Source: an uncultured archaeon (GTDB lineage Archaea; Nanobdellota; Nanobdellia; Woesearchaeales; CAIVOO01). From it: 64,000 nt of DNA. The notes under the pieces are model-generated. The model was not told the origin of the DNA. It did not search any database and worked only from the letters and a program-made list of their open reading frames with translations. How positions within the stretch are numbered: position 1 is the stretch's first letter; each line of letters begins with the position of its first letter. Of the stretch, positions 2,759 through 58,779 are shown piece by piece. Made by a program: the position numbers and the translations under genes. Where the stretch lies: NCBI GenBank assembly GCA_903904885.1, contig CAIVED010000044.1:5579-69578 (forward strand). Direction: 5' to 3'.

Positions 2759-3490
2759 ATGGGGTTTTTTGATATTTTCGGGAAGGAGAAAAAGGGCAAG
2801 AAAACAGCCCAGAAGAATGCAAAGAAGCGGCCGAAGCCAGCCAAGGCTGTGAAAAAGAAAGAGCCAGCCCCATCAAAAAAGCACGTTGATGAAGAAATTG
2901 ACAGAGAGGTCTGGCCGGTAAGGTCTGTCGCGATTGTTGAGATTCTGGGCGCGCCGAAGGAATATGTCATTGAGACAATGAATTCCTATGTGGCCAAAAT
3001 CAAGAAAGAAAAGGACATAAACGTTCTCAGCGCAACAATATCCGCGCCGGACCAGAAAGACAAGATGTTTGCCATTTTCGCTGAGATAGAAATGCTAACC
3101 AAAACACCTTCAAGGATTGTTGATTTTTGCTTTGACTACATGCCATCTTCAATAGAATTGCTTGAGCCGGAGGACATAAAATTCAACTCCCATCAGTTTT
3201 CAAATTTTTTCAACGACCTTCAGGCAAGGCTGCACAGCCTGGACATGCTTGTGAAAAACCTCCGGGCGGAGAACAAGGTGCTCAATGACAACGCCCATTT
3301 CCTACTTAGAAACAACATCCTGCTTTCGCTGAAAGAAAAGGAAAAGGATTTGGCTGCAATCTCAAAAAACATAGGGATTCCAGAGGAAAAGACAAAGGCA
3401 TTCCTGGAAGTTATGATACACCAGGGCGTAATATTATTAAATAAGAGCAAATACTCCATAAACCAGGAGAAGGTGAAATTTAGTGAGTGA
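2759..3490 (+). CDS. Hypothetical protein with a Lys-rich N-terminal tail. Possibly a ScpA/kleisin-like partner of the downstream ScpB (context only).
   Basis: KKGKKTAQKNAKKRPKPAKAVKKK tail. A C-terminal winged-helix-like segment (ISKNIGIPEEKTKAFLEVMIHQGVILL). Overlaps the ScpB start by 8 nt. Confidence 0.3.
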   Translation: MGFFDIFGKEKKGKKTAQKNAKKRPKPAKAVKKKEPAPSKKHVDEEIDREVWPVRSVAIVEILGAPKEYVIETMNSYVAKIKKEKDINVLSATISAPDQKDKMFAIFAEIEMLTKTPSRIVDFCFDYMPSSIELLEPEDIKFNSHQFSNFFNDLQARLHSLDMLVKNLRAENKVLNDNAHFLLRNNILLSLKEKEKDLAAISKNIGIPEEKTKAFLEVMIHQGVILLNKSKYSINQEKVKFSE

Positions 3491-4379
3491 ATTAAAACAG
3501 CAAATAGAGGCGATATTGTTTGCAGCTGGCAAGAAGGTATCGTATGAGGACCTTGCAAGGCTGTGCAATACAGACATTTCTGCGATAAAGAATGAGATTG
3601 CTGAGCTGAAAAAAGATTACGAGCAAAGGGATTCCCCGTTAATTCTCAGCGAAGAAGCTGACGGCTGGAAGATGACTGTCCGGGAAAAATACCTTTCGCT
3701 TGTCCATAAGATGCTTCCTGAGACAGAGCTTTCAAAATCAGTTCTTGAGACGCTTGCGGTTATTGCATGGAAGCATCCTGCAATGCAGTCAGATGTAATC
3801 AAGATAAGGACAAACAAGGCCTATGACCACATAGATGAATTGATTGAGCGGGGCTTCATTTCAAAGGAAAGAAAGGGAAGAAGCTATCTTATCCGCATAA
3901 CCCCAAAATTCAATGAATATTTCGAGCTTCCGAACAATGAGGCAATTAAAAAACTGTTCCAGGACATACAGAAGCACATAAAGCTTGAGGAAACCGAAGA
4001 ATCCGGAAAGGAAAAACTCGGAGAGCTTGAGGTGTTCGAGGAAGAGCAGACAGAGGAAAAGAAAGAAAAAATAAAGATTTATGATTCTGAATCCCGGGAA
4101 GGGGAAGCAGAGGAAACTGAAGAAACAGAAAAAGTTACTGAAGATGAAAATCCTGAAGAATCCGAGATTAATGAAAAGATAAAAAAAATTCAGGAAACAA
4201 CGGAAGAGTTCTCTAAATTTGAAGAGGGGCCTGAAGAAACTGAGGAGGAGCCTGCCAAAGAAGAAACCAAAGATGTTCCTGCAGAAAAAGAAAAGTCTGC
4301 GGAAAAAAAATCAGGCAGGAGAGTGCTTTCAAAGGAGCTTGAGGAAATGTCAGGCGATGATGAAGAGGAGGAGCAATGA
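3483..4379 (+). CDS. scpB: Segregation and condensation protein B (ScpB) homolog with an acidic C-terminal tail.
   Basis: The N-terminus QIEAILFAAGKKVSYEDLARL... and a second wHTH (ETLAVIAWKHPAMQSDVIKIR) match the ScpB tandem winged-helix pattern. The E/K-rich tail is low-complexity. Confidence 0.6.
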   Translation: MSELKQQIEAILFAAGKKVSYEDLARLCNTDISAIKNEIAELKKDYEQRDSPLILSEEADGWKMTVREKYLSLVHKMLPETELSKSVLETLAVIAWKHPAMQSDVIKIRTNKAYDHIDELIERGFISKERKGRSYLIRITPKFNEYFELPNNEAIKKLFQDIQKHIKLEETEESGKEKLGELEVFEEEQTEEKKEKIKIYDSESREGEAEETEETEKVTEDENPEESEINEKIKKIQETTEEFSKFEEGPEETEEEPAKEETKDVPAEKEKSAEKKSGRRVLSKELEEMSGDDEEEEQ

Positions 4380-4650: not shown

Positions 4651-7068
4651 ATGGCAGAAAGAATCATACCCAGACTGATTGAAGAGGAGATGAAAAAGTC
4701 CTACATAGACTATGCCATGTCAGTCATTGTCGGAAGGGCTTTGCCGGACATCAGGGACGGCCTGAAGCCGGTCCATAGGCGGGTCCTTTACACCATGCTT
4801 GAGCTCGGTTTGGCCTCAAATAAGCCATTCAAGAAGTGCGCCAGGGTTGTCGGAGACTGCCTTGGTAAGTATCATCCTCATGGCGATTTGGCTGTCTATG
4901 ACACTCTGGTAAGAATGGCCCAGACCTTCTCATTGCGATATATCCTGGTTGACGGCCAGGGCAATTTTGGCTCGGTTGACGGCGATTCTGCAGCAGCCAT
5001 GAGGTACACAGAATGCCGCATGTCCAAGGTTGCAGAGGCGATTCTCCAGGACATTGACAAGGAAACAGTTGATTTCCAGCCGAATTTTGACGCTTCGCTA
5101 AAGGAACCGATTGTCCTTCCTTCAAAGATTCCAAACCTGCTGGTAAATGGCAGCGCGGGAATTGCTGTTGGCATGGCAACAAACATCCCTCCGCACAATA
5201 TGACTGAAATCTGCGATGCCACAATTTTCCAGATTGACAATCCTGAATGCGTAATTTCAGAGCTTATGCAATTTGTAAAAGGCCCTGATTTCCCCACAGC
5301 GGGAACAATTGTCGGCAGATCAGGGATAATTGATGCCTACACCACAGGCCGAGGCAAGGTTCTTGTGCGCGCAAAATCAGAGATTATTGAGGAAAAGGGC
5401 AGGCAGAAAATAATTGTCACAGAAATTCCCTACCAGGTTAACAAGTCAATGCTGATTGAGGAGATTGCAGACCTTGTGAGGGATAAGAAAATAATCGGCA
5501 TATCTGACATCAGGGACGAGTCTGACAAAAAGGGAATGACCATTGTTATTGAACTGAAAAAAGATGCCAATGCCCAGGTTGTCCTTAACCAATTATACAG
5601 CCACACAAGGATGCAGCAGACATTCGGAATAATAATGCTGGTTCTGGTGAACAATGAGCCAAAGGTCCTGAATCTCCATGAGATGATTCACTATTTCATT
5701 CTCCACAGGAAAGAGGTTGTCACAAGAAGAACTCAGTTTGAGCTGAGAAAGGCAGAGGAGAGGGCCCATGTTTTGGAGGGATTAATCATAGCGCTGAATC
5801 ACATTGATGAGATTGTAAAGAAAATAAAGGCATCAAAGGATGCTGCTGTTGCAACAAATATGCTTGTTGCCGACTACAAGCTGACGGAAATCCAGGCCAA
5901 GGCAATCCTTGACATGAAGCTGCAGAGGCTTGCGGCGCTGGAGCAGGAGAAAATCAGGGCAGAGCACAGGGATTTGATGAAGCTGATTGCAGAACTGAAG
6001 GAGATTCTCGCTTCAGAAAAAAGAATTTTGGGAATAATCAAGGATGAGCTGAACGAGATAAAAAAGGCCTTTGGCGATGCAAGGAAAACAGAAATAATTG
6101 ATGCCGAGGGCGAGGAGATTTCCCAGGAGCAGCTGATTAAGCCGGAGGATGTTGCTGTCACAATTTCACATTCAGGCTACATAAAAAGGACAACCCTTGA
6201 CACCTACAAGCAGCAGGGGCGCGGCGGAAAGGGCGTTGTTGCCGCTGAAACAAAGGAAGGGGATTTTGTTGAGCATGTTTTTGTTGCTAATACGCATTCC
6301 TACATCCTGATGTTCACGGACAGCGGCAAGGTGCACTGGCTGAAGGTCTATGAAATCCCCGAGGCATCAAGATATGCAAAGGGCAAGGCCATAGTCAACA
6401 TTGTCCAGCTTGACCAGGGAGAAAATGTAAACGCATTTGTTCCTGTGAAGGAATTTGATGACAGCCATTTTGTTTTCATGGCAACAAAAAAGGGAACCGT
6501 GAAAAAAACAAATCTATCAGAATACTCAAGGCCGCGAAAGGGCGGCATAATCGCAGTTACGCTTGAAGAGGGCGATAATCTTATCGGGGTTGAGCTGACT
6601 TCCGGAAAGGACCAGATTATGCTTGCTTCAAAGGAAGGCAATGCCGTAAGGTTTGAGGAAAATGATGTGAGGGCCTGCGGCAGGTCTGCAATGGGTGTCA
6701 GGGGAATCAAGCTGAAGGAAAGCGATGAGGTTGTCGGAATGGTCATTGCAGATGATTCAAAGCAATTGCTGACAATAACTGAAAACGGCTACGGCAAAAG
6801 GACAGAGGCCGGCGAATACCGCCTGATTGGAAGGGGCGGTTCAGGAGTAATAAACATACAGTGCTCGGACAGGAACGGCAATGTTGTTTCAATAAGCTCT
6901 GTTACCGATGATGACGGCATTGTTGTCATAAGCAAAAGCGGGGTCATGATAAGGATTCTTGCGAAGGATATCTCCCTGATTGGCAGAAATACTCAGGGGG
7001 TCAGGATAATGAAGCTTGACGAAGGGGACAAGGTTGTTGCAGCGGCAAAGGTTGTCCACGAGGAATGA
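4651..7068 (+). CDS. gyrA: DNA gyrase subunit A.
   Basis: [21 protein letters not shown] near the N-terminus (active-site Tyr region) and GyrA C-terminal beta-pinwheel repeats. 805 aa, no intein. Confidence 0.9.
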
Positions 7069-9809: not shown

Positions 9810-10120
9810 GTGTAGGGCAGCATAAGCCGCCTTCTGTAAGGCTCCACATTGCTATGGACAGCCATTGCCGGCATTCAACTAAGCGTCTCAATGGACTTGC
9901 ACAAGCCAGGGCTCGCCGTTTCATCGTTTCTCTTGGAGACGTCAGCGGGTTAACTCAGTTTTGTCGCCAAAACCTTCGCGCGCATCATCCCATTCCAAAA
10001 GCCGTGCCGTTTCTGAGCGGTTGCCATCCATTTCTGGATATTGCTTTCACAATTGGCCACCGATAGTGGGCGGACTTTCCTCAGCCGATTAAGGCCGACA
10101 GCCAGCTGCTGCTCCTACAC
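9810..10120 (-). ncRNA. rnpB: RNase P RNA (archaeal type A-like).
   Basis: Minus strand reads 5'-GUGUAGGAGCAGC...GGCUGAGGAAAGUCCGCCC (CR-I/P4 5' strand)...UUACAGAAGGCGGCUUAUGCUGCCCUACAC-3' (CR-V ACAGAAnnCGGCUUA). P1 pairs 5' GUGUAGG(A)GCAGC with 3' GCUGCCCUACAC. Minus-strand BRE/TATA at 10143-10150, ~25 nt upstream of the 5' end. Confidence 0.8.
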
Positions 10121-11059: not shown

Positions 11060-11084
11060 TTATCTTTTTTCTTAAAAATAAAAT

Positions 11085-11258
11085 CATATTTTCTGGGCAG
11101 GCCTTAACTTTGCTTCCTGCTTTTCATCTTTGCCTCGATTTCCAAGCCTGCATTAACTTGCACTCTGCAAGTAAATATTTCATTCTTGCATGGCAATCCC
11201 GCAGAACAAGCTAGACAAACTTGAAGATTAATGCCAGAACCAGCAAACCGGCTTTATT
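11085..11258 (+). repeat. Intergenic repeat family, copy A (~175 nt), containing the 13-codon mini-ORF MAIPQNKLDKLED (11190..11231).
   Basis: Shares ttttctgggcaggccttaactttgcttc, ttcttgcatggca and acaaacttgaaga.taatgc.agaaccagcaaac blocks with copy B (19372..19546, opposite strand). Shares partial blocks with copy C (58583..58730). Confidence 0.7.
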
Positions 11259-11278
11259 GGATAATATTTATATAGAAG

Positions 11279-11796: not shown

Positions 11797-12255
11797 ATGC
11801 AGGAATGCCTTATCAATGCCCATGAGGAGCTGAAAAGGGTCGACCACCTTATTTATGTCAGCCTGAAATACACCCGCACAATTGATGTCATAAAAAACAT
11901 AGTGGACAGGTTCATCAGCGCCTATGACTGCTTTATTCTTGCAATGCTTACCAAACTAAAGGAAGAGGGCAAGATAGATGAGTTTCCCGAGTCGCCTATT
12001 GAGAAGGCAAACCTGGTGAAGGAGAAATATCCCGAGCAGATTGTCCAGGAAAACATAGAAATATATCTTCTTTACAGGAAAATAGCAAAGGCAAAATCAA
12101 CAAGCTCCCAGGAATACAGGCGTCATGTTACAATGACCGCCACCCTTGCGGACGGGACAGTTATCCAGGTTGACATTGACAAGATTTATGAATACTACAA
12201 AAAAGCCAAGGAATTCTTTGAGATGGTTAAGAAATTAGGTGGAACGGGTGACTAG
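11797..12255 (+). CDS. Hypothetical alpha-helical protein (P2), possible distant paralog of P1. Overlaps the downstream MinD-like gene by 17 nt.
   Basis: Track ORF 152 aa. Confidence 0.35.
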   Translation: MQECLINAHEELKRVDHLIYVSLKYTRTIDVIKNIVDRFISAYDCFILAMLTKLKEEGKIDEFPESPIEKANLVKEKYPEQIVQENIEIYLLYRKIAKAKSTSSQEYRRHVTMTATLADGTVIQVDIDKIYEYYKKAKEFFEMVKKLGGTGD

Positions 12256-13006
12256 GTTTATATCAATTGTTTCCGGGAAAGGAGGCGTCGGAAAAACCAC
12301 AACAGCAATAAATCTCGCGGCGGCATTGAGCTCCTGCGGAAAGGAAGTCCTTGTTGTTGACGGCAACACAGGAACGCCTGATGTGGGGCTTCATCTTGGG
12401 GTTACAAAGTTCTCAACAACACTCCACGACGTGCTGAAGGGCTCAAAAACGCTCAGGGATGCTGTTTACATCCATTCATCCGGGCTGAAGTTTGTTCCGG
12501 CAAGCATATCATTGGATGAAACCAAGACCGTGGATATTGATAACCTGCACCAGGTAATGCTGGACCTTTACGGCACAACAGACATAGTCCTGATAGACGG
12601 CGCAGCAGGAATAGGGAAAGAGGCGCTTTCTGTGATAAAATCCTCAGATGAGGCGATAATTGTCACAAATCCTGACATTCCCTCTGTTACAGATTCATTG
12701 AAAATGACCAGAATCACAAGAGAGAACGGCATAAAGGTTTACGGCGTCATTGTAACAAGGGCTTTTGACAAAAATGATGTTTCCCCCGAGAATATTTCTG
12801 TCCTTCTGGACGCGCCGATTCTTGCGGTAATTCCCGAGGATTTTGCAGTCAGGAAAGCGCTGTCAATGAAGCAGCCGGTTGTTTTCTCCCATCCAGAGGC
12901 AGAATCCTCTGTTGCCTACAAAAAGCTGGCAGCGGAGATGCTTGGGCAGACCTACTCCCAGAAAATAGGGAAGAAGGGTTTCTTCGCGAGATTATTCGGA
13001 ATGTGA
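12239..13006 (+). CDS. minD: MinD/ParA-family P-loop ATPase.
   Basis: Deviant Walker A SGKGGVGKTTTAINLAAAL and the overall MinD/ParA layout. Confidence 0.8.
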   Translation: MERVTRFISIVSGKGGVGKTTTAINLAAALSSCGKEVLVVDGNTGTPDVGLHLGVTKFSTTLHDVLKGSKTLRDAVYIHSSGLKFVPASISLDETKTVDIDNLHQVMLDLYGTTDIVLIDGAAGIGKEALSVIKSSDEAIIVTNPDIPSVTDSLKMTRITRENGIKVYGVIVTRAFDKNDVSPENISVLLDAPILAVIPEDFAVRKALSMKQPVVFSHPEAESSVAYKKLAAEMLGQTYSQKIGKKGFFARLFGM

Positions 13007-14035
13007 GTCCTCTGTAAAGTAAAGTCCCTTTAGCATGTGCATTCTTAACAGTTCACTGTGAGACATTTGGCGGGATTTAGCAAATCCTGAGGTAAATGCA
13101 TCCCAAACGGATTTTTCTCTTCTCGGCATTATTTCTGGATGTGTTTCAAAAAACTCATCCCAGTAACGGCGGAATCCTACATACCCCAGTATCTTCCAGA
13201 AACCAACCCTGATTGCTTCAGCAGTCATAACCACTGAAGTATAGCCCAGAAGACCTAAATCTGGGACCTGGTTGAATGTTTTCTCTCTGTCCAGATAAAA
13301 CCTGCCATCGCGCTGAATCCAGGCATATTTCGCATTCCAAGGAGCCGGGGGATACAATATTCCTTCCTTTTGGTTAAAATTGAACACTCTTTCTGGCAGA
13401 TAATATGGGTATTTTTCATACAGCGCTTCTATTGATTTGAATTTCTCTTTCTTTTCTGAAGTTTCTTCAAAAGAAACACGCAAAACCTGGTTTTTAGCGT
13501 ATTTTACTTCCCGGTCATCATCGGTGTCGATATATTGCTCTCCTTGTTCAAGAACCTCCACAACCTTTGCACGGTAGGTGCTGTTCTTTTTTGAAGCTGG
13601 CTGGAATTCTCTCAAATAACTGTACCAGTCGACATCACCGATTTCCCATCCCGGTTCATAAGCAATGCTGTGCGGAATTTTCATCACATCAGTCCTGGTT
13701 ATCCTCTGTTTCCTTCTAACAACCTTACTTCTGTCAAGGTTTCTTTTGGCTTCATCACGGTTTTGTGAATGAAATAGCATTTCTCTATGGAAATATTGTT
13801 TGGGATAATCAAGTTCCTCGTCCCAGTCTGAGTTTAGACATTCACTATTACGATATCCTTGATTGATGTCGAGACTCAATATTCTTGCAAGCCCTTCCAA
13901 TCCGGAAAAATACAGATAATTCCAGCTTCCATCAACTTTCAAATTTTGGAGAAGTCTGACAAATTCTTCCTTTGTTATTCCGGGATTATCTAGCAAAATC
14001 GCTGCAGGTATCAGATGGTCGCATGGTCCCCCCAT
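12992..14035 (-). CDS. Hypothetical Trp/Tyr-rich 347-aa protein with no recognisable motifs.
   Basis: Track ORF, convergent with minD. Confidence 0.35.
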   Translation of the reverse strand: MGGPCDHLIPAAILLDNPGITKEEFVRLLQNLKVDGSWNYLYFSGLEGLARILSLDINQGYRNSECLNSDWDEELDYPKQYFHREMLFHSQNRDEAKRNLDRSKVVRRKQRITRTDVMKIPHSIAYEPGWEIGDVDWYSYLREFQPASKKNSTYRAKVVEVLEQGEQYIDTDDDREVKYAKNQVLRVSFEETSEKKEKFKSIEALYEKYPYYLPERVFNFNQKEGILYPPAPWNAKYAWIQRDGRFYLDREKTFNQVPDLGLLGYTSVVMTAEAIRVGFWKILGYVGFRRYWDEFFETHPEIMPRREKSVWDAFTSGFAKSRQMSHSELLRMHMLKGLYFTEDSHSE

Positions 14036-17804: not shown

Positions 17805-17905
17805 GCGGAGGTGGCAGAGCCTGGCCAAATGCGCAAGGTTGAGGAAGAAAACTTCAAACGCCTTGTCCCTTAGTGGGTGCGAGGGTTCAAATCCCTTCCT
17901 CCGCA
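17805..17905 (+). tRNA. tRNA-Leu, putative anticodon GAG, class II (long variable arm), with a ~15-nt intron in the anticodon loop. No encoded CCA.
   Basis: Acceptor GCGGAGG/CCUCCGC with discriminator A. T-arm GAGGGUUCAAAUCCCUU. Anticodon stem CAAGG/CCUUG flanks UUGAGGA plus ~15 extra nt. The two overlapping track ORFs here are spurious. Confidence 0.65.
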
Positions 17906-19143: not shown

Positions 19144-19341
19144 ATGATAATACCAATAAGATGCTTAAGCTGCGGAAAGCCAATCGGTCATCTGTGGCAG
19201 GATTACAAGGACAGGGTTGCCAAGGGCGAGGACAAGAAGAAAGTAATGGACGACCTTGGCCTTGAGAGATACTGCTGCAGGTCAGCATTCCTGGGACAGG
19301 TGGACCTTCTTGAGACTATTGCGCAGTTCAAGAAGTTTTAA
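19144..19341 (+). CDS. rpoN: DNA-directed RNA polymerase subunit N (Rpo10).
   Basis: MIIPIRCLSCGKPIGHLWQDY...RYCCRSAFLGQVDLLE. The track start 19102 is upstream non-ATG. Confidence 0.8.
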   Translation: MIIPIRCLSCGKPIGHLWQDYKDRVAKGEDKKKVMDDLGLERYCCRSAFLGQVDLLETIAQFKKF

Positions 19342-19371
19342 ATTATTTTTTTCTTTAAATAATATTCCGTT

Positions 19372-19546
19372 TGCTGGTTCTTGCATTACTCTTGAAGTTT
19401 GTGCTGCTTCTTCTGCCTGAGTGCCATGCAAGAAATTAGTTATTAACTGCCGAAGGCGACTGAGGCAGTTTAAAGCAGGCCTGGCAATCAAGGCAGCAAT
19501 TGAAAGCAAGAAGCAAAGTTAAGGCCTGCCCAGAAAACGGCTTTTT
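19372..19546 (-). repeat. Intergenic repeat family, copy B (reverse orientation), with mini-ORF MALRQKKQHKLQE (19386..19427, minus).
   Basis: Reverse complement aligns end-to-end with copy A. Imperfect terminal inverted repeat gccgttttctgg ... ccagcaaacgg. Confidence 0.7.
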
Positions 19547-19600
19547 AATATAAACCATTTTCAATAAAATTTATATACTCCCCCTAGCGTAGGTTGAGGC

Positions 19601-22600
19601 ATGGACTTCAAATCTATCGAAAAGAAATGGCAGAAGAGTTGGGCAGATGCCAAAGTGTTCAAGGCAAGGGAAGATCCGAAGAAAAAGAAGTATTACTGCC
19701 TTGAGATGTTTCCATACCCTTCTGCGTCTGGTTTGCACATGGGGCACGCTTTCAATTACACAATTGGGGATATTTATTCAAGGTTCAAGCGAATGAACGG
19801 CTTCAATGTCCTTTATCCTATGGGCTATGATTCTTTCGGGTTGCCTGCGGAAAATGCGGCAATCAAGGCAAACTCGCATCCAAGAAAATTCACAAATGAG
19901 GCAATAAAGAATTTCATAAGGCAGCAGAAGGAGCTTGGCCTTAGCTATGACTGGGACAGGATTCTTTCATCATGCGAGCCGGAATATTACAAATGGAATC
20001 AGTTTTTTTTCCTTAAATTCTGGGAAAAGGGGCTTGTTTACAGGAAGAAAGCCCCTGTCAACTGGTGCCCAAAATGCAACACAGTTCTTGCGAATGAGCA
20101 GGTTCACAACGGCAAATGCTGGAGGCATCCTGACACAGATGTTGAAATCAAGCAGCTGGAGCAGTGGCTGATCAAGACAACTGCCTATGCTGATGAATTG
20201 CTTGAGGATTTGGAAAAAATCCACTGGCCTGAAAGAATCAAGATAATGCAGAAGAACTGGATTGGAAAATCTCATGGCACAGAAATAAAATTCAAAATCA
20301 ACGGAGAAGATTGGCCAATCTTCACAACGCGCCCGGACACAATTTACGGAGTCACGTTCATGGTTGTTTCTGCACAGCATCTGAGATTGATGGAGCTGGT
20401 TACAAAGGAGCAGAAGAAGGAAGTTGAAGCTTTCCTTAAAAAAATCAAGTCAACAAGCGAGAAAGATATCGAGGAATTGGAAAAGGAAGGCGCTTTCACC
20501 GGCAGTTACGCAATCAACCCAGTAACAAACCAGAAAATCCCAGTCTATGCCGGCAATTTTGTTGTAGCAGAATACGGCGCAGGGATGGTAATGGCTGTCC
20601 CTTCCCACGACCAGAGGGATTTTGAGTTTGCAAAGAAGTACAAGATTCCAATGAAACAGGTTATTGCTCCTGTTTTTGTAACAACCGACGGAAAAGATGC
20701 TGTTAGGGAAGACAAGAAAACTGAAGAGCGAGATTCAATATTTGCCATTGTTAAACACTGGGAAGAAGATAAATATTTTTGTCTGGACTGGAAAAATTTC
20801 AAATGGAAGTCCTTTGTCATAGGGGGGGTTGATAAGGGGGAAAAGGCAGAAGATGCTGCGATTAGGGAAGTTAAGGAAGAAACAGGATATTATGACATTA
20901 AAAAAATTACTGAGATGGGATTTGAGAACCATGGCAACTATTACGCTGAGCATAAGGGCGTAAACAGGTATGCAAGATTTAGGAATTTTTTAGTTGAGTT
21001 AAAATCAGATAAGCGAGAAAAGTTAGAAGAAGAACATACGAAAAATCATGAGGGAATGTGGATAGACAAAGATAAAGTTGCCAATTTTATTAACTTGTCA
21101 AATAATAAGTATATTTGGGATAGTTATATTAAAGGAGAAAGAGCATTTACAGAAGAAGGTATTCTTGTAAATTCCGGCGAATTCAATGGGATGAGAAATA
21201 CTGATGCCATTGAAGATATAACAAAATTCCTTGAAAAAAAGAAACTAGGCAAAAAAGTTGTTCAGTACAAACTGAGAGACTGGCTTATTTCAAGGCAGAG
21301 ATACTGGGGAACTCCGATTCCTGCAATATACTGCGACAAATGCGGTGTTGTCCCTGTTCCTGAGAAAGATTTGCCTGTTATTCTGCCTGAAGATGTCCAA
21401 TTCGGTGAGGGAAATCCTCTTGCAACAAACAAGGAGTTTGTTAATGTAAAATGCCCTAAATGCGGTGGTCCTGCCAGAAGAGAAACTGATACCATGGACA
21501 CATTCATGGATTCTTCATGGTATTTCCTGAGATTCTGCGACAATTTGAACAACAAAGAGCCATTTTCAAAGGAAAGTGCAAAATACTGGATGCCAGTTGA
21601 CCAGTATATTGGAGGGGCGGAGCATGCATGCATGCATCTTATTTACGCAAGATTTTTTGTAAAGGCATTAAGGGACATGGGCTACTTCAAGTTTGATGAG
21701 CCGTTTACAAACCTATTCAATCAGGGAATGCTTCATGGCGAAGACGGGGCAGTAATGTCAAAATCACGGGGGAATACGGTTCTCCCCGAAACTGTCTCTG
21801 AAAAATATGGAATTGACACAGCAAGATTCTTCCTTGTTTCAATAGCTTCTCCTGACAAAGATTTGAACTGGAGCGATGCTGGAGTGGAAGGAAGCCTGAG
21901 GTTCATCAATAGGGTAATAAGTTATTATGAAACTGTTAAAGTTGGAAAATCAAGCAAGAGAATTGAAAGCAAGCTGAACAAAGCGATTAAGGAGATAACA
22001 AAAGAGATTGAGAATTTCAATTACAATATTGCGATAATCCACATCAGGCAGCTGTTTGAATCGTTTGAAGAAGAGGCCAGCAAGGATACTCTTGAAAAGT
22101 TTTTGAAGCTTATTCATCCCATTTGCCCACACATCACGGAGGAATTGTGGGAGAAACTGGGAAACAAGCCGTTTATTACAATCTCTTCATGGCCAAAGTA
22201 CGATGAAAGCAAGATTGACGAGAAAGCAGAGCAGGAAGAGGAAATAGGCAAGGAGATAGTTTATGACATAAAGAGAGTTCTCGAGTTTGCAAAGATAGAC
22301 AAGCCGAAGAAAGTCACATTGATAATATCAGACAAGTGGAAATATAAATTCTATGAGAAATTTAAATCCGAGTTTGAGAAAACAAGGGAATTCAAGCCGA
22401 TTATGGAGGCTTTGCTGAAGGATGCAGATTTGAAAGCCCACGGCCAGGACATCCAGAAGTGGATTCCTAATTTATTAAAGAATCCGGGCAGGATTCCTGT
22501 AATTATATTTGACCAGAAAACAGAGAAAGAGATATTTTCCAAATTAACCGCCCAGATAAAGAAAGAGTTGGGAGCTGATTCGGTTGAAGTCGTTCTTGCA

Positions 22601-22666
22601 GAAGATTCCAAAGAACCCAAGGCAAAGAATGCGATGCCAAGCAAGCCGGCGATTGTGGTACAATAA
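19601..22666 (+). CDS. leuS: Leucyl-tRNA synthetase, bacterial-type architecture, carrying an in-frame Nudix-hydrolase domain insertion (~nt 20675-21151).
   Basis: HMGH class I motif (PSASGLHMGHAFNY), SHDQRDFEFAKKYKIP, LPVILPEDV, RETDTMDTFMDSSWYF, YIGGAEHACMHLIYARFF, VMSKSRGN (KMSKS). Between KQVIAPV and EEGILVNSGEFNG about 160 aa are inserted, containing GGVDKGEKAEDAAIREVKEETGY, a perfect Nudix box (Gx5Ex7REUxEExGU). Confidence 0.9.
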   Translation: MDFKSIEKKWQKSWADAKVFKAREDPKKKKYYCLEMFPYPSASGLHMGHAFNYTIGDIYSRFKRMNGFNVLYPMGYDSFGLPAENAAIKANSHPRKFTNEAIKNFIRQQKELGLSYDWDRILSSCEPEYYKWNQFFFLKFWEKGLVYRKKAPVNWCPKCNTVLANEQVHNGKCWRHPDTDVEIKQLEQWLIKTTAYADELLEDLEKIHWPERIKIMQKNWIGKSHGTEIKFKINGEDWPIFTTRPDTIYGVTFMVVSAQHLRLMELVTKEQKKEVEAFLKKIKSTSEKDIEELEKEGAFTGSYAINPVTNQKIPVYAGNFVVAEYGAGMVMAVPSHDQRDFEFAKKYKIPMKQVIAPVFVTTDGKDAVREDKKTEERDSIFAIVKHWEEDKYFCLDWKNFKWKSFVIGGVDKGEKAEDAAIREVKEETGYYDIKKITEMGFENHGNYYAEHKGVNRYARFRNFLVELKSDKREKLEEEHTKNHEGMWIDKDKVANFINLSNNKYIWDSYIKGERAFTEEGILVNSGEFNGMRNTDAIEDITKFLEKKKLGKKVVQYKLRDWLISRQRYWGTPIPAIYCDKCGVVPVPEKDLPVILPEDVQFGEGNPLATNKEFVNVKCPKCGGPARRETDTMDTFMDSSWYFLRFCDNLNNKEPFSKESAKYWMPVDQYIGGAEHACMHLIYARFFVKALRDMGYFKFDEPFTNLFNQGMLHGEDGAVMSKSRGNTVLPETVSEKYGIDTARFFLVSIASPDKDLNWSDAGVEGSLRFINRVISYYETVKVGKSSKRIESKLNKAIKEITKEIENFNYNIAIIHIRQLFESFEEEASKDTLEKFLKLIHPICPHITEELWEKLGNKPFITISSWPKYDESKIDEKAEQEEEIGKEIVYDIKRVLEFAKIDKPKKVTLIISDKWKYKFYEKFKSEFEKTREFKPIMEALLKDADLKAHGQDIQKWIPNLLKNPGRIPVIIFDQKTEKEIFSKLTAQIKKELGADSVEVVLAEDSKEPKAKNAMPSKPAIVVQ

Positions 22667-27825: not shown

Positions 27826-28095
27826 AGCGGCGAGCCCTGCGAATCCGAATAAGCCGCAACTTAACAGTTACCTCCGGCTTTCCTCGATTCCGCGACCCTG
27901 CAAGCATTGCAAACTGCAGTTAAGGCTGCTGCATTCCTGCCCTGACCTGATTCCCACAACCGCAATCCTGCAGGACAGAATGTCACTGTACAGCCAAAGA
28001 CTGGTAAGCCGCAACCTACCCTCGTCCGCAGTATAGCTTCACTTAAAGCCCGTTAGTGATTACAGCGTAGGGCTGGCACGCCAGCATAGCCCGCC
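27826..28095 (-). ncRNA. ffs: Signal recognition particle RNA (7S/SRP RNA).
   Basis: Minus strand contains AUCAGGUCAGGGCAGGAAUGCAGCAGCC, matching the universally conserved domain IV/helix 8 (cf. 4.5S CAGGUCAGGUCCGGAAGGAAGCAGCC). 5' GGCGGGC pairs with 3' GCUCGCC. TATA at 28118-28125 on the minus strand ~25 nt upstream. T-rich 3' flank. Confidence 0.6.
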
Positions 28096-28118
28096 ATGGA
28101 GAAACCAGCGATAGTGGT

Positions 28119-48623: not shown

Positions 48624-50690
48624 ATGGCCTATGAATTAATTATCACAGAGAAGCCCAAAAGCGCCCTTAAGATAGCCCAGGCGCTCGACGACAAGATTGG
48701 CAAGGATGCCATAAACGGTGTTCCTTTTTACAAACTGAAATACAAGGGGAAGGAAATTGTCATAACATCCGCAGTTGGCCATTTGTACAGCCTGGCTGAA
48801 AAAACCTCAAGCAAGTGGGCCTATCCTGTGTTTGACATCGAGTGGAAAGAGGGCAGCGAAGTAAAAAAAGAAAGCTCCCATGTTGCAAAATACATAAATG
48901 CAATAAAAAAACTGTCGAAGGACGCGAATTCTTTCACAGTCGCAACAGATTATGACATTGAAGGGGAAGTTATCGGGCTGAATGTGGTCCGCTATGCATG
49001 CAAGCAGAAGGATGCCGCAAGGATGAAGTTCTCAACATTGACAAAGCCGGATTTAATCAAGGCCTATGAAAACAAGTCAAAAAAGCTTGACTGGGGAATG
49101 GCCCTGGCAGGAGAAACGAGGCATGAGCTGGACTGGTATTATGGCATCAACATTTCAAGGGCGCTTACCCATGCGATTAAGACAACAGGAATGTTCAAGA
49201 TTCTGAGTTCAGGAAGGGTCCAGGGCCCTGCGCTGAAAATTGTTGTTGACAAGGAAAAGGAAATCATGAAATTCAAGCCAGAACCATATTGGCAGATAGA
49301 GCTTCTTGGAAATGTTTCCGGCGCATTGATTGACGCATGGCATATTGCGGACAGGTTCTTTGACAAGAAAAAAGCAGATGCAGTGATGGAGAAAACCAAA
49401 AACCAGAAGGCAAAAATAAGCGATGTTGACAGAAGGAGATTCAACCAGGATGCGCCGAATCCGTTTGATTTGACAACCCTGCAGACAGAGGCCTACAGGT
49501 GCTTCAAAACCAGCCCTAAGAACACGCTTGCAATTGCCCAGAGCCTTTACACAGAAGGTTTTATTTCTTACCCGAGAACAAGCTCCCAGGTTTTGCCAAA
49601 GGAAATCGGATATGATAAAATCCTGGATGATCTTGGGGTGCAGAAAATTTACGCAAAGCTTACTTCACAATTATTAAAAAAGGGCAAGCTTGAGCCGAAC
49701 AACGGCACAAAAACAGACCCTGCCCATCCGGCAATTTATCCCACAGGAATCGAGCCGAAAAATCTCGATGAGCGGGAAGCAAAGGTGTATGACTTGATTG
49801 TCAAAAGGTTCCTTGCCACATTCGCTGATATCGCAGTAAGGGAAACGCTGAAGATTGAGATTGACTGCAATGGGGAAAAATTTGTTGCAAAGGGCACGGT
49901 CACAATTGAAAAGGGCTGGCATATTTTTTACGAGCCCTACACTGATTTCAAGGATGAGGAACTGCCTAATGTGAAAAAAGGCGAAGAGGTAAAGGTTGTC
50001 GAGATAAAAATGCATGACAAGGAAACCCAGCCGCCAAGAAGATATACTCCTGCCTCAATAATCAAAGAGCTGGAAAAAAGAAATCTTGGCACAAAGGCCA
50101 CAAGGGCAAATATTATTGACACTCTTTATGATAGGGGCTATGTCAGCGGGGAAAATCTCCAGGCCACTGAACTTGGAATAAAAACCGTTGAGAGCCTTGA
50201 GCAGTTCTGCCCGGAGATTGTTGACGTTGAGCTGACCAGGCACTTTGAAGAGGAGATGGATGAAATCCAGGAAGGGAAGAAAAAGCCCCAGGAGATTCTT
50301 GATGAGGCAAAGAAAGTCCTAACAAAAATACTTGAGGAAATAAAAAAGAAGGAAGGCCAGATTGGCGAGAAACTGCGGGAGGCCTTCAAGGAAACCACAA
50401 GGAAAGCCAACATTCTTGGGAAATGCCCTGCCTGCAAGGAAGGCAATTTAAGGATAATTGTTTCAAGAGCATCCGGCAAGAGGTTCATTGCCTGTGACAA
50501 ATATCCGGAGTGCAAAACCACCTTCGGAATCCCCCAGGGCGGGGCGATAAAAGAAGTCAAGGAGCTGTGCAAGGACTGCGGTTATCCGATGATTCTTGTT
50601 TTGACAAAAGGAAAGAGGCCGTGGAAATTATGCATGAACCCTAATTGTCCGTCTAAACAACAAATGATGAATGCGAGTGTGGAGATATAA
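48624..50690 (+). CDS. topA: Type IA DNA topoisomerase (TopA/Topo III-like) with C-terminal zinc ribbons.
   Basis: Toprim (LIITEKPKSALKIAQAL...VATDYDIEGEVIG), active-site region (GFISYPRTSSQVL), C-terminal CPACKEG...CDKYPECK...CKDCGYPM. No helicase domain, so this is not a reverse gyrase. Confidence 0.85.
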   Translation: MAYELIITEKPKSALKIAQALDDKIGKDAINGVPFYKLKYKGKEIVITSAVGHLYSLAEKTSSKWAYPVFDIEWKEGSEVKKESSHVAKYINAIKKLSKDANSFTVATDYDIEGEVIGLNVVRYACKQKDAARMKFSTLTKPDLIKAYENKSKKLDWGMALAGETRHELDWYYGINISRALTHAIKTTGMFKILSSGRVQGPALKIVVDKEKEIMKFKPEPYWQIELLGNVSGALIDAWHIADRFFDKKKADAVMEKTKNQKAKISDVDRRRFNQDAPNPFDLTTLQTEAYRCFKTSPKNTLAIAQSLYTEGFISYPRTSSQVLPKEIGYDKILDDLGVQKIYAKLTSQLLKKGKLEPNNGTKTDPAHPAIYPTGIEPKNLDEREAKVYDLIVKRFLATFADIAVRETLKIEIDCNGEKFVAKGTVTIEKGWHIFYEPYTDFKDEELPNVKKGEEVKVVEIKMHDKETQPPRRYTPASIIKELEKRNLGTKATRANIIDTLYDRGYVSGENLQATELGIKTVESLEQFCPEIVDVELTRHFEEEMDEIQEGKKKPQEILDEAKKVLTKILEEIKKKEGQIGEKLREAFKETTRKANILGKCPACKEGNLRIIVSRASGKRFIACDKYPECKTTFGIPQGGAIKEVKELCKDCGYPMILVLTKGKRPWKLCMNPNCPSKQQMMNASVEI

Positions 50691-50712
50691 AAAGATTTAT
50701 ATATTCATTTGT
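50691..50712 (+). promoter_or_regulatory. TATA (tTTATATAtt / tgTATAAAt) for the pentapeptide-repeat gene.
   Basis: Directly after the topA stop, ~25 nt before the ATG at 50725. Confidence 0.4.
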
Positions 50713-50724
50713 ATAAATTTAATT

Positions 50725-51591
50725 ATGGCAAACGAAGAGGTGCTTGTTCGAAAGGATAGGATATTGCCTAGAAGCGCTCCGGATAAATTATTCTTAAGTT
50801 TATTAATGGGCGGAGCGTGGCACAAGGACTGGACTTTTGAGGAAAGAAGAGCAAATTGGAATAAGATGGTTAGGGAATTTATGATAGTGCCAATAATCCT
50901 TGAACATATAAGTCTTAAGGGATTAAATTTTAAGGGATTTATGTTTTACCGGGCTATTCTTTCCAGAGCAAATCTTGAAGGAGCCAATCTTTCAGAAACT
51001 GACATGCGAAATTCCCGTCTTTCCTATGCTAACCTTTCAGGTGCAAATCTTTCATCTGCAAATCTTGAAGGAGCAAATTTACTTTGCGCAAATTTGGCAG
51101 GCGCAGATATGCGAGTTGCTAACCTAAAAAATGCCAACTTAAACAGCGCCATTTTAACCGCAGCGAATCTTTCCGGGGCATGTCTTCAAAATGCAAATAT
51201 ATCAACTGCTGCGTCTGGTCATAGTAAGACACATCTTGATAGGGCTAATCTTTCAGGAGCAGACTTGTCAGACGCAACGGTAATAAAGGCAATTCTTTCT
51301 CATGCAGATCTCTCAGGAGCATACTTTCACAACACAGAGATAAAACTATCAAATTTAAGTTACTCTAACCTTTCTAAAGCTACCTTTTATGGTGGGGAAA
51401 TCAACAACGTTGATTTGTCAGGTGCAAATCTTCAGGAAGCAAAGTTTACAAAAGTTGATATAAGCCCTAAAAGCACTGAAAGCTTGAGATTGGCGAATGT
51501 TTCTGGTGCTATTTTTGAAAATGTACGCTTCAACGTTAAAGAGCAAGTTCTTGAAGAGCTCAGGAGTCGTGGCGCCATCATAGTGGAATAA
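50725..51591 (+). CDS. Pentapeptide-repeat protein (Qnr/MfpA-like right-handed quadrilateral beta-helix).
   Basis: More than 25 tandem A(N/D)L(S/T)xA(N/D)L repeats (ANLEGANLSETDMRNSRLSYANLSGANLSSANLEGANLLCANL...). Confidence 0.8.
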   Translation: MANEEVLVRKDRILPRSAPDKLFLSLLMGGAWHKDWTFEERRANWNKMVREFMIVPIILEHISLKGLNFKGFMFYRAILSRANLEGANLSETDMRNSRLSYANLSGANLSSANLEGANLLCANLAGADMRVANLKNANLNSAILTAANLSGACLQNANISTAASGHSKTHLDRANLSGADLSDATVIKAILSHADLSGAYFHNTEIKLSNLSYSNLSKATFYGGEINNVDLSGANLQEAKFTKVDISPKSTESLRLANVSGAIFENVRFNVKEQVLEELRSRGAIIVE

Positions 51592-54301: not shown

Positions 54302-55132
54302 TTGCTAGAGCAACTAAGACTTAATCTTGTGGAGCGAAGGCCTTATGTTGCGTTTTTCATAGGAATTGCCTATGTTTTCATTGCTTTCCTGACATCAAAG
54401 ATTTTCTTTCCGCAGATAATCTCCGTGGCAACACTGTTCCTTGTTACGCTTCTTTTGGTTCCCACGGTAATAAAGCTGATGGGCGACGAGGAAGAGCGCG
54501 AGAGCAAGGACGGAACCAGGAATTTTTTCAGGGACCACAGGGATATTTTTGAGGTGTACATATTTTTATTCCTCGGGCTTCTTGCCGGCTCGCTTCTGCT
54601 TGCCTGGAGCACAGACATCTCCAATTTCAGCTACCAGATGAACTACCTCCAGCACAATGAGGGGCTGAGCAGCGAGCTGATTCAGTCAAAGGCTGCAACA
54701 GGGCTGACTTTCTCGCTTAATTCCTTTCTCGGCGTCCTGCAGAACAATCTCCTGGTGATTCTCATATGCTTTGCACTGTCCTTTTTTTACGGCGCAGGCG
54801 CAATGTTCCTGGTAGTGTTAAATGCCAGCATATTCTCAACATTCATTTTCTTTGTCATGCGGGAGCTTCCAACCATGGCAAACAAGGCGGCAATACTCGC
54901 AATATTCTGCATCCATATGGTGCCTGAGCTTGCGGGATTCCTGCTGGCGGCAATAGCTGGCGGTGTTATTTCCAAGGCTGTCATGAATGAGAAGATTTTC
55001 AGCGAGCAGTTCAGGAATGTAATGAAGGATGCGCTTGTCTTGTTTTTGATGGCAGCAGTAATAATTGTAATCGCAGCTTTCCTTGAGTCATATGTCACAA
55101 CATCGCTGTTTAACCTGCTTATAGCTAAATGA
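54302..55132 (+). CDS. SpoIIM/DUF95-family membrane protein.
   Basis: 6 TM with the characteristic GxxxG-rich helices (ILICFALSFFYGAGAMFLVVLNAS...). Confidence 0.45.
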   Translation: MLEQLRLNLVERRPYVAFFIGIAYVFIAFLTSKIFFPQIISVATLFLVTLLLVPTVIKLMGDEEERESKDGTRNFFRDHRDIFEVYIFLFLGLLAGSLLLAWSTDISNFSYQMNYLQHNEGLSSELIQSKAATGLTFSLNSFLGVLQNNLLVILICFALSFFYGAGAMFLVVLNASIFSTFIFFVMRELPTMANKAAILAIFCIHMVPELAGFLLAAIAGGVISKAVMNEKIFSEQFRNVMKDALVLFLMAAVIIVIAAFLESYVTTSLFNLLIAK

Positions 55133-55875
55133 AAACGAAAATAATAGCAACCATCGGCCCTTCAAGCAGAAGCGAGAGCATCCTGAGGCAGATGGTGAAT
55201 GCAGGAATGGGCATCGCAAGGATAAACACCAAGTATGCCTCCATTGGTGAGATAGCAGACATAACCCAAAAGCTCGGGAAGATAGGGAAATGCCGGATTC
55301 TCATGGACATCAAGGATGAAAAAACAGTCAGTTTCCTGAAAAAATGCAAATTTGACTACCTTGCGGTCTCATTTTCAGAATCAGCCGAGCAGCTCAGGAA
55401 GATAAGGAAGCTCTTTTCCCCTTTGAAAATAAAAATAATTGCAAAGATAGAAACAAAAAAGGGAGTTAGGAACATTGACAGCATAATCAAAGAGAGCGAC
55501 GGGGTCATGGTTGCCAGGGGGGATTTGGGGAGGAACGTGCCGTTTGAAAAGGTGCCGATTTTCCAGAAGCTCATAATAAAGCGCTGCAGGAAAAAGGGCA
55601 AGCTGGCAATAACCGCAACTGAGATGCTTCTTTCAATGACAAAATCCCAGCTTCCTGAGCGGTCAGAAACAAGTGATGTTGCAAATGCCGTCCTTGACGG
55701 CTCTGACGCCCTGATGCTTTCAGAGGAGACAGCCATAGGAAAATATCCTGTTCTTGCGGTCCAGACAATGCGAAAAATCACTGCAGAGACAGAGAAAGGC
55801 CAGAAGCTTCTTGAGCTGGAGAGCATCTATCCTGAAAGGTACAAGCTTTCAAAATACTGCTCAGCCAGAATTTAG
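55129..55875 (+). CDS. Pyruvate-kinase-like barrel protein lacking the B domain and the C-terminal domain.
   Basis: KIIATIGPSSRSESILRQMVNAGMGIARIN, KIIAKIETKKGVRNIDSIIKESDGVMVARGDLG, ITATEMLLSMTKSQLPERSETSDVANAVLDGSDALMLSEETAIGKYP. Only 248 aa. Confidence 0.55.
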   Translation: MKTKIIATIGPSSRSESILRQMVNAGMGIARINTKYASIGEIADITQKLGKIGKCRILMDIKDEKTVSFLKKCKFDYLAVSFSESAEQLRKIRKLFSPLKIKIIAKIETKKGVRNIDSIIKESDGVMVARGDLGRNVPFEKVPIFQKLIIKRCRKKGKLAITATEMLLSMTKSQLPERSETSDVANAVLDGSDALMLSEETAIGKYPVLAVQTMRKITAETEKGQKLLELESIYPERYKLSKYCSARI

Positions 55876-56162
55876 GATTTCTTTTTTACAAACAGCGAGC
55901 ACCAGCATTCACCTTTGTCCTGCCAGGTTTTCTGCATCCTGAAATTGCAGGGGCAGATTATCTTGATGTCATCATCAAACCTTCCTGTTGTGATTCTGCA
56001 CGGGCAGAACTTTAGCCCGTGGTTTTCCTCGTTGTCCAGAACTCCCTTTGCCAGCTGCTCAACCCTTTTCATGTCCGGATTGAGAAAGAATTTGTCATCA
56101 GTTTGCAGGCCGGCAAAATCCTGCCAGATTTTAACTAATTTATCTATTTCTTCTTTGCCCAT
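55872..56162 (-). CDS. Ferredoxin:thioredoxin-reductase catalytic-subunit-like protein (FTRc).
   Basis: CPCR...CPC...CWC spacing typical of the FtrB catalytic subunit. Confidence 0.55.
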   Translation of the reverse strand: MGKEEIDKLVKIWQDFAGLQTDDKFFLNPDMKRVEQLAKGVLDNEENHGLKFCPCRITTGRFDDDIKIICPCNFRMQKTWQDKGECWCSLFVKKKS

Positions 56163-56425
56163 TTTTTAAGGTCCTCATAGCTTGCTTCCCCGCAGAATGC
56201 CCGATTGTTTTCCTCGTCAAGGAAAGTCGGGACTCCAAGCTCGCCGCCGCAGGATTTTTTTATCAGGTCTTCATGTTTGCGCATTTTGTCAGCGTTTTCC
56301 TTGCTGTGCCATACTTCAAGCTTTTCGATTTCTACGCCCGCTTCTTTTATCAGCCTGTCTGCCAGGGGCATCATTATATGGCAGTGGGGGCACTCCTTTC
56401 CGTGAAACATTATTATTTTTGTCAT
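56144..56425 (-). CDS. Glutaredoxin/NrdH-like thioredoxin-fold protein.
   Basis: MTKIIMFHGKECPHCH (CPxC active site). ~90 aa. Confidence 0.6.
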   Translation of the reverse strand: MTKIIMFHGKECPHCHIMMPLADRLIKEAGVEIEKLEVWHSKENADKMRKHEDLIKKSCGGELGVPTFLDEENNRAFCGEASYEDLKKWAKKK

Positions 56426-56679
56426 AGCCCGATTATTTTCCTGAACTCCTTCTCGTTTATTTCAACATAGGAATTGACGTGCTCGCAGGTGGGGCACGGG
56501 GAGGGGAATCCTGTTCCGATATGAATGTCGTTGCAAACATTGCATCTCCAGAACTTCATTTTCCCGGGATTCTTCAGGGAATTTTCAACGTCCGCCTTTG
56601 TTGCCGGGACAAATCCCTTTGGGCAGCCGGCTCCGAAATGAATCCCGCCTGCGCTGCCTTTGAAAATTGTTTTGTTCAT
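56422..56679 (-). CDS. Rubredoxin-like zinc/iron-ribbon protein.
   Basis: CNVC...CPTC pair with rubredoxin-like spacing. Confidence 0.45.
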   Translation of the reverse strand: MNKTIFKGSAGGIHFGAGCPKGFVPATKADVENSLKNPGKMKFWRCNVCNDIHIGTGFPSPCPTCEHVNSYVEINEKEFRKIIGL

Positions 56680-56765
56680 GCTGTTTTAAATCATTATTTT
56701 TTTATAAACCTTTCTTATTGGCCTTTTTCATAATCTTTAAATACCCCCTGTCAGGACGTTCTGCC

Positions 56766-58559: not shown

Positions 58560-58582
58560 CTAATTTTTTGTTAAAATAAAAT

Positions 58583-58730
58583 CCCGTTTTCTGGGCAATT
58601 CTTAATTCAGATTGCTACTCTCGATGTTTGCCTTGATTGCCAGAATTGCCTAACTTTTCTCGCTGCGCTCAAAAAGTAATATCTTATTTCTTGCATGGCA
58701 CTCAGGCAGAGGAAGCCTGCGGAAGGACAA
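58583..58730 (+). repeat. Intergenic repeat family, copy C (partial/divergent), with mini-ORF MALRQRKPAEGQCL (58695..58739) running into the downstream TATA box.
   Basis: Shares cccgttttctgggca, gccttgattgccag and tttcttgcatggcactcaggcaga(a/g)gaagc with copies A and B. Confidence 0.6.
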
Positions 58731-58779
58731 TGTTTATAAAGCGCGGTTGCTCTTTATTGCTCAGGTTTGGGGGGTGTGA

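Follow-up and report, generated by a model that had tools for sequence, protein, structure and literature searches.

The window, the whole 64-kb stretch of DNA that was analysed, is a Woesearchaeota-like DPANN contig with a G+C content of 42%. It encodes a ribosomal-protein/RNA-polymerase-subunit cluster, NAC and LeuRS, and the nearest LeuRS homologs are MAG proteins labelled Woesearchaeota, Nanoarchaeota or Pacearchaeota. A search of the window with Rfam 15 gave above-threshold matches only to the archaeal RNase P RNA (9814-10116, minus strand), the archaeal SRP RNA (27828-28096, minus strand) and one tRNA. This tRNA gene (17805-17905, plus strand, 101 nt, 43.6 bits) presumably contains an intron; ARAGORN reported no tRNA in the window.

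Three intergenic sites of the window carry copies of one repeat (Table 1). Copy A is bordered by the stop codon of NAC (11059) on one side and, on the other, by the TATA box (11268-11275) of a gene for a 165-aa hypothetical protein. Copy B lies between rpoN, which ends at 19341, and LeuRS, which starts at 19601, on the strand opposite to both genes. Copy C directly follows the stop codon of a Lon-like protease gene (58559) and precedes a gene for a 787-aa hypothetical protein. The initial annotation had reported three homologous copies at these places, all of them intergenic. Both statements held: an nhmmer profile made from the three copies recovered A, B and C with E = 1e-57 to 7e-61, and a covariance model scored them at 123-189 bits. 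A fourth copy was not found by nhmmer in the 64-kb window below E = 0.4, except for the reverse strand of copy B.

The element is ~190-205 bp long and non-coding. The core positions given earlier were correct, but the similarity continues at either end for another 15-20 nt, which belong to A/T-rich terminal repeats. Likewise, the three sequence blocks ascribed to all copies are present in A and B, but the third is missing from copy C, where the homology covers only the first ~155 nt and ends after GCAGAGGAAGCC (58717). Beyond this point lies the promoter of the downstream gene, in which the BRE/TATA GTTTATAAA (58735-58743) is followed by 23 nt, a leader with GGGGGGTG and the ATG at 58780. In the first block of copy C only TTTTCTGGGCA matches; the next bases are AATTC instead of AGGCC, with a compensating change on the opposite hairpin arm. 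A and C had been placed immediately upstream of gene promoters. Copy A does abut a TATA box, and in copy C the 3' part has been replaced by the promoter of the next gene; copy B abuts the TATA box of the next gene as well.

Table 1. Copies of the element in the window with their hairpins and ends. Copy envelopes and E-values are from an nhmmer profile built with five copies.
Feature	Position	Strand	Description
Copy A, full length	11066..11269	+	nhmmer E = 5.5e-55; covariance model 172.6 bits
Copy B, full length	19348..19557	-	nhmmer E = 4e-59; covariance model 188.9 bits
Copy C, 3'-truncated	58563..58717 (profile envelope to 58765)	+	nhmmer E = 1.2e-49; 123.5 bits
5' terminal inverted repeat of A	11071..11096	+	CTTAAAAATAAAATCATATTTTCTGG; degenerate 3' partner 11240-11264
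5' terminal inverted repeat of B	19530..19554	-	TTTATATTAAAAAGCCGTTTTCTGG; 3' partner 19353-19377 (CCAGCAAACGGAATATTATTTAAAG)
P2 hairpin of A	11097..11151	+	arms 11097-11104 and 11144-11151; encloses L-box TTTGCCTCGATTTCC (11129-11143)
P2 hairpin of B	19475..19529	-	arms 19522-19529 and 19475-19482; L-box CTGCCTTGATTGCC (19483-19496)
P2 hairpin of C	58595..58649	+	arms 58595-58602 and 58642-58649; L-box 58627-58641
P3 central hairpin of A	11156..11172	+	ACTTGCA-CTC-TGCAAGT
P3 central hairpin of B	19445..19470	-	AACTGCC-12 nt-GGCAGTT
P3 central hairpin of C	58653..58677	+	ACTTTT-13 nt-AAAAGT
Right arm of A	11183..11239	+	P4 arms TTCTTGCAT (11183-11191) and ATGCCAGAA (11231-11239); R-box GGCAATCCCGCAGAACAAGCT (11192-11212)
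Right arm of B	19378..19434	-	P4 arms 19426-19434 and 19378-19386; R-box 19405-19425

Filled and empty sites in related archaea

Related contigs were obtained through LeuRS and Lon homologs, and synteny among them is well conserved. Searches with nhmmer and the covariance model define a family of six copies at four loci in two species, namely A, B and C of the window and L011, L012a and L012b of a second species. L011 (LeuRS 88.5% identical at the amino acid level) is a diverged ortholog of copy B; it is located at 2232-2439 on the minus strand, with the same rpoN-LeuRS junctions and in the same orientation. The contig L012 (Lon 67% identical at the amino acid level) comes from a sister sample of L011 and has two copies. 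L012a is a half copy (5785-5869) right after the Lon stop codon and orthologous to C, and L012b is a full copy after a PLD-like gene.

In the next relatives the sites are empty. At site A, the gap between NAC and the next gene is 33-93 bp in L008, L009/L010 and L019, compared to 237 bp in the window. Site B is empty in L008 and L009 (LeuRS 86% identity in L009/L010), with an rpoN-LeuRS gap of 54 bp in L009 versus 259 bp in the window, and site C is empty downstream of Lon in L014 and L016/L017. The family thus represents an insertion common to the two close species in which sites are filled. A comparison for presence/absence polymorphism had been proposed in the initial annotation, and such polymorphism was indeed found between species, with filled orthologs of B and C and three to four relatives empty. 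Where a site is empty, the flanks can be aligned without interruption, and the TATA boxes of the downstream genes are part of this alignment. Their persistence where the element is missing speaks against the shared regulatory cassette suggested earlier, understood as a promoter cassette.

No further copies were detected with nhmmer or the covariance model in ~130 kb from five other relatives. Scans of genome and metagenome contigs with the exact pattern TTCTGGGCA-N72-100-TTCTTGCATGGCA returned only chance matches in unrelated bacteria or eukaryote-like contigs, two scans of viral contigs yielded nothing or one chance match, and blastn against phage and plasmid collections gave no matches.

Every copy is preceded by a gene that runs towards it and whose stop codon lies 0-25 nt away. 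A run of T6-T8 separates this stop codon from the element in four of the six copies (window 11060-11071, 19342-19352 and 58560-58569; L011 2207-2231). These runs are either gene terminators that would have been used as insertion target or the outermost part of the element.

LeuRS (19601-22666, plus strand) has a NUDIX hydrolase domain inserted at about residues 398-493; this insert is missing from the closest LeuRS relatives (876-877 aa, 81-87% identical) and present in more distant ones (P0005, P0006 and many others), and some relatives have a further hydrolase domain (PF06821) added. Downstream of LeuRS in L019, a G+C-rich 350-bp stretch (12640-12990) is apparently structured and resembles an RNA gene. 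A gene for a 347-aa protein without Pfam match (12992-14035, minus strand), located between a ParA-like gene and the next conserved gene, is missing from the syntenic regions of L008, L009 and L019. The ~1.6 kb between SpoIIM and the Lon-like gene (55129-56680) are missing in L012, L014 and L016, where Lon follows SpoIIM after ~40 nt. This segment encodes a 248-aa pyruvate-kinase barrel fragment and, on the other strand, three small redox proteins (ferredoxin-thioredoxin-reductase beta-like, thioredoxin-like and rubredoxin-like). Elsewhere in the window, a 306-aa protein (50671-51591, plus strand) consists mostly of pentapeptide repeats (ANLSGANL…), and the protein encoded at 3483-4379 has an acidic low-complexity tail.

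The spacer between the Lon-like gene and a dCMP-deaminase/kinase gene contains a conserved hairpin motif, ACCTTAGCAA-GGTCC…GGAC-TCTTGCCAGGTAAAAGAGGCGAA, in three relatives (L012 5875-5935, L014 7800-7865, L016 ~11900-11960). The motif shows one compensatory change (GTCC/GGAC to GCCC/GGGC) and is without Rfam match. Copy C ends in an 11-nt remnant of it (TGCGGAAGGAC, 58716-58727), which suggests a deletion or rearrangement at site C.

Hairpins, boxes and terminal repeats

The element has a left and a right arm, one a diverged inverted copy of the other. Either arm can form a local hairpin (P2 left, P4 right) and contains a conserved TGCC-N4/5-TGCCA box, and a hairpin of variable sequence, P3, lies between them. 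P2 is a helix of 8 bp with a loop of ~40 nt that contains the L-box. Its sequence is GCAGGCCT/AGGCCTGC in B, from which A has one mismatch; GCAATTCT/AGAATTGC in C, with one mismatch in L012a; and GCGGTTCT/AGAACCGC in L011, L012b being a one-mismatch intermediate. In four of the eight pairs both sides change (GCAGGCC/GGCCTGC, GCAATTC/GAATTGC, GCGGTTC/GAACCGC). P3 is a perfect or near-perfect stem of 6-7 bp that occupies the same position with a different sequence in all five copies covering the region; five of its seven pairs change on both sides. P4 (TTCTTGCRT/ATGCAAGAA, 9 bp) is 97% paired and almost invariant (93-94% identity), so that its pairing is beyond the reach of covariation.

The covariation analysis across copies, another of the checks suggested at the outset, thus came out in favour of structure, P2 and P3 keeping their pairing through double substitutions among six sequences from two species. 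Taken together, 95.7% of the cells in P2, P3 and P4 are paired, compared to 30-44% when the partners were slid by 1-3 columns. In nine pairs of P2 and P3 both partners differ between copies, and neither the observed pairing nor the covariation score was attained in any of 500 column shuffles. The underlying alignment of the six sequences is a hand-made structural one, which passed unchanged through MAFFT, and the columns of P3 were fitted by hand to the hairpin; P2 was recovered independently by RNAalifold on a plain MAFFT alignment. A template-switch (quasi-palindrome) mutation could mimic such compensatory changes without selection. The cells of the helices that are not Watson-Crick pairs comprise three G.U and four A.C. 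As an A.C cell corresponds to G.U on the other strand, the helices contain no strand signal. Two further pairings, both fully compatible with the sequences, were dropped: that of the L-box with the R-box, 88% paired but through conserved invariant columns only, and a proximal alternative hairpin for the 5' arm of P4 (TTCT-GC/GC-AGAA), whose columns are invariant and hence uninformative.

The ends of the element are formed by terminal inverted repeats of ~20-25 bp (consensus CTTAAAAATAAAATCCCGTTTTCTGG), degenerate and A/T-rich in their outer part. The imperfect terminal inverted repeat noticed earlier in copy B was verified, 10 of its 11 core bases being complementary. Over ~20-25 nt, the 5' ends of A and C (…TTAAAAATAAAATC(A/C)(T/C)(A/G)TTTTCTGG) match the 3' ends of L011 and L012b (consensus AAAATAAAATCCCGTTT) when these are reverse-complemented. 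The repeats are degenerate at the 3' end of A and at the 5' ends of L011 and L012b. Within copies, the helix P1 that they would form is 61% paired and without covariation, which gives the ends the appearance of DNA repeats in decay and not of a maintained stem; a single end-to-end hairpin was dropped for this reason. Candidate target-site duplications are TAA at site A and AAA or GAAAA at site B, none of them demonstrable because the junctions sit in A/T homopolymer runs.

The symmetry of the element is also seen beyond its ends. In every full copy the right half, when reverse-complemented, can be aligned with the left one (z = 3.1-6.3), and the reverse strand of every copy scores 16-24 bits with the covariance model. 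The L-box of the left arm, TGCC-N5-TGCCA(G), is an inverted copy of the R-box of the right arm, CATGGCA-N4-GGCAG. The motif TGCC-N5-TGCCA occurs four times in the window against 0.8 expected, two of the occurrences being those in copies B and C.

Sequence constraint and alternative readings

Copies at orthologous sites are more similar than expected from neutral divergence. In nearly ungapped comparisons, B and L011 are 67% identical (172 columns), C and L012a 74-80% and the R-box block 80%, compared to an identity of 39-54% for the four-fold degenerate sites of the two species, which indicates that some constraint persists. Identity was taken from nearly ungapped blocks, as gapped alignment of shuffled sequences inflates the baseline to 0.58-0.75. 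Conservation along the element is uneven, highest in the arms of P4 (0.93-0.94) and in the boxes (0.80), and lower at the outer ends (0.48-0.59) and in P3 (0.33-0.54). The copies at site C have lost different parts in the two species, hence not every copy is maintained. Such above-neutral conservation is unexpected for plain junk and, as far as sequence comparison goes, points to a function at the level of the host. All copies are 66-85% identical to each other. A and B are 77-85% identical and have the same P2 variant, which hints that copy A may have been copied from B, or converted by B, after the species split. Signs of recent mobility were not found: near-identical copies are absent, and in four contigs of the same species from other samples sites A and B are both occupied and the genes are spaced identically.

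The mini-ORF of the repeat was compared between A, B, C, L011 and L012b. The three translations given for A, B and C are correct, and the ATG-initiated frames, in A from position 11190, do share similar N-terminal residues. A family of small-peptide genes with products of 13-14 residues, MA(I/L)(P/R)Q..., is nevertheless very improbable. L011 and L012b have GTG as start, and a 1-nt indel changes their reading frame, with loss of the TAA. The resulting lengths are 13, 13, 14, 40 and 32 codons, the last two (L011 and L012b) running into flanking DNA. The ATG itself is part of the conserved P4 arm, and the similarity of the peptides tracks nucleotide identity. The initial annotation had already voiced this last worry, which was justified, as start, frame and stop all vary; its peptide-gene candidate fails on the same differences in the two full copies of the related species. 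In genome annotation, the mini-ORF should accordingly not be entered as a gene.

A second reading takes the copies as genes or modules for a structured non-coding RNA, with a multi-helix junction (P1-P4) as the functional product and copies that would have arisen by gene duplication. Transcription would then start at a weak promoter of its own or come from read-through, and the product might be, for instance, a regulatory RNA, a protein-binding RNA or a ribozyme. The covariation of P2 and P3 together with conserved sequence in loops and boxes is in line with such an RNA, as is the constraint at orthologous copies. Moreover, P2, P3 and P4 all appear in the folds of minimum free energy computed for L011 (forward) and B (reverse), and T-rich tracts follow the element on both strands. 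The question of transcription was judged against the promoters of the genome itself, which have the form (G)AAAAC(C/A)-TTTATA(A/T)A (GAAAAC-TTTATAAA) followed by 22-26 nt to the start; this pattern is the same for leaderless mRNAs, the RNase P RNA and the SRP RNA. By this measure, a conserved BRE/TATA was not found on either strand of the element. Copy B has a good one (GAAAATGG-TTTATATT), but A and C have A-rich tracts only, the B ortholog in L011 is without such a box, and the start predicted from the promoter of B falls inside the 5' arm of P2. In A, B, C and L011 a T6-T8 run follows the upstream stop codon ahead of the element and should limit read-through. The copies do not fold with exceptional energy (z +0.2 to -3.0, mostly above -2), the wobble cells are without strand bias, and the two boxes, as inverted copies, form one and the same site in double-stranded DNA but differ in sequence as RNA. 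A match to an Rfam family was not obtained; near copy A the top-scoring hits reached 14-17 bits with E > 1. On balance an RNA product of this kind is possible but unlikely, and the autonomous small-RNA gene family among the original candidates lost ground on its promoters and on Rfam. Guide RNAs of the H/ACA or C/D type, 5S rRNA, tRNA-like RNA, ribozymes and omega-RNA were rejected, with no boxes seen by eye and no Rfam matches.

The inverted boxes and the unbiased wobble pairs would suit a protein-binding cassette that acts at the level of DNA, possibly derived from domesticated transposon ends, in which the boxes and the invariant TTCTTGCAT/ATGCAAGAA repeat would be putative sites of a dimeric protein. 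The hairpins might then be used as cruciform or single-stranded DNA in chromosome organisation, in recombination or by a single-strand transposase. The pseudo-two-fold symmetry of the element, the occurrence of both orientations and the fact that boxes and P4 are conserved in sequence, and not just in pairing, speak for it. On the other hand, P2 and P3 vary in sequence yet keep their pairing, which binding to double-stranded DNA does not need, outside the copies the window shows no enrichment of the box motif, and no candidate binding protein was found. We regard such a cassette as rather improbable. Flanks that are A/T-rich and of low complexity might suggest that the copies resemble each other by chance or are ordinary paralogs of promoter or terminator DNA. 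This reading is practically excluded: it is refuted by profile E-values that reach 1e-61, by the covariation, and by copies of the same family at orthologous and non-orthologous sites in the second species; in addition, the downstream promoters persist at empty sites.

Origin of the family and comparison with known repeats

The six copies probably represent an old, low-copy family of non-autonomous MITE-like interspersed elements of ~190 bp, so far seen in two Woesearchaeota-type DPANN species; we hold this view with modest confidence. Among the candidates listed in the initial annotation, a MITE-like mobile element was the only one to gain support, from the empty sites, the terminal inverted repeats, the non-coding sequence and the occurrence in both orientations. 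The elements are small (< ~500 bp), and their dispersed copies distinguish filled from empty orthologous sites. A parent transposase or an autonomous IS with the same ends was not seen among the window proteins scanned or at the loci of the relatives, and the covariance model gave no match next to the DDE_Tnp_1 gene of L008. Other repeat classes were rejected: differences between copies are not adenine-specific and the copies are intergenic, unlike DGR template and variable repeats; there is no core GTTRRRY of an integron attC, and the copies are scattered among housekeeping genes; and scattered copies without orc1/cdc6 context do not resemble the ORB repeats of replication origins.

As a MITE-like element, the repeat would have spread by DNA transposition, mobilised in trans by a transposase with the terminal repeats and the boxes as its recognition sites. 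The places of insertion would have been just behind the oligo-T terminators of genes, and most of the spread may have taken place before the two species split. After insertion, the copies were apparently neither expressed as a peptide nor equipped with a conserved promoter of their own, while the boxes, P4 and the pairing of P2 and P3 seem to have been kept under partial constraint. This would suggest a secondary use (exaptation) as a structured intergenic module in either orientation, similar to bcr1, ERIC and Correia, with the copies at site C presumably decaying. A bolder version, in which the element is a functional, mobile, pseudo-symmetric three-hairpin module under purifying selection and a previously undescribed class in DPANN, appears unlikely to us. 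The module, then no relic, might act as RNA (for instance in 3'-end formation, as an insulator or in stability, in each case independent of orientation, or in trans) or as a cruciform or single-stranded-DNA recombination site.

The MITE-like repeats of bacteria, such as bcr1, ERIC and Correia, are found at the 3' ends of genes and can be co-transcribed with them (PMC3184786). Closest in size and behaviour is bcr1 of the Bacillus cereus group (~155 bp). Both elements are in the range of ~150-200 bp, intergenic, non-coding and of non-conserved distribution, and in both a multi-hairpin fold, cruciform-like in bcr1, is kept by compensatory changes (PMC3184786). However, the sequences are unrelated, the host here is a DPANN archaeon and not a bacterium, and bcr1 was shown to be transcribed and has clear 5-bp direct repeats, whereas none of the candidate target-site duplications of the archaeal element is demonstrable. 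ERIC/IRU elements, the 127-bp imperfect palindromes of Enterobacteriaceae, likewise occur in either orientation in the 3' regions of genes. As a family they are old too: there are orthologous copies that species have kept in common, and other sites are filled in some species and empty in others. In contrast to ERIC, which is one long hairpin, the archaeal element shows covariation for the local hairpins P2 and P3 and not for end-to-end pairing. ERIC is known to be transcribed and to influence mRNA decay, and again the sequences are unrelated.

With other archaeal MITEs the family shares small size, non-coding sequence, terminal inverted repeats, multiple copies and a Woesearchaeota-like host genome. 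Typical MITE families have near-identical recent copies that are linked to a known IS, whereas the present element is old (66-85% identity), of low copy number, without a parent IS found and evolving in a structure-preserving way. In the IS200/IS605-derived PATEs and in REP/REPIN, hairpin-forming ends likewise matter more than long perfect terminal inverted repeats, and the stem-loops of the Borrelia IS605 are conserved through compensatory change (PMC3184786). Unlike our element, PATEs and REP are without terminal inverted repeats, have subterminal hairpins with short loops on one strand, and are linked to TnpA, TnpB or RAYT genes. No such genes were seen here, and the loops of P2 and P4 are ~40 nt. 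A census of prokaryotic MITEs places a Woesearchaeal genome among the most MITE-dense archaea (PMC11602168), and elements of this kind are thus already known in the lineage. The family itself is not described in the literature searched, which covered the text of PMC11602168.

Should the family be no more than an old MITE, it would be an ordinary finding. The intergenic gaps at empty sites are 30-50 bp. DPANN archaea have tiny, tightly packed genomes, and given this compactness it is noteworthy that non-coding insertions of 200 bp were kept across speciation with their hairpins preserved through compensatory change. To our knowledge, almost nothing is known about non-coding sequence in the DPANN lineage. 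In these archaea, the family described here provides a tangible starting point for the study of mobile DNA and possibly of structured elements that were exapted.
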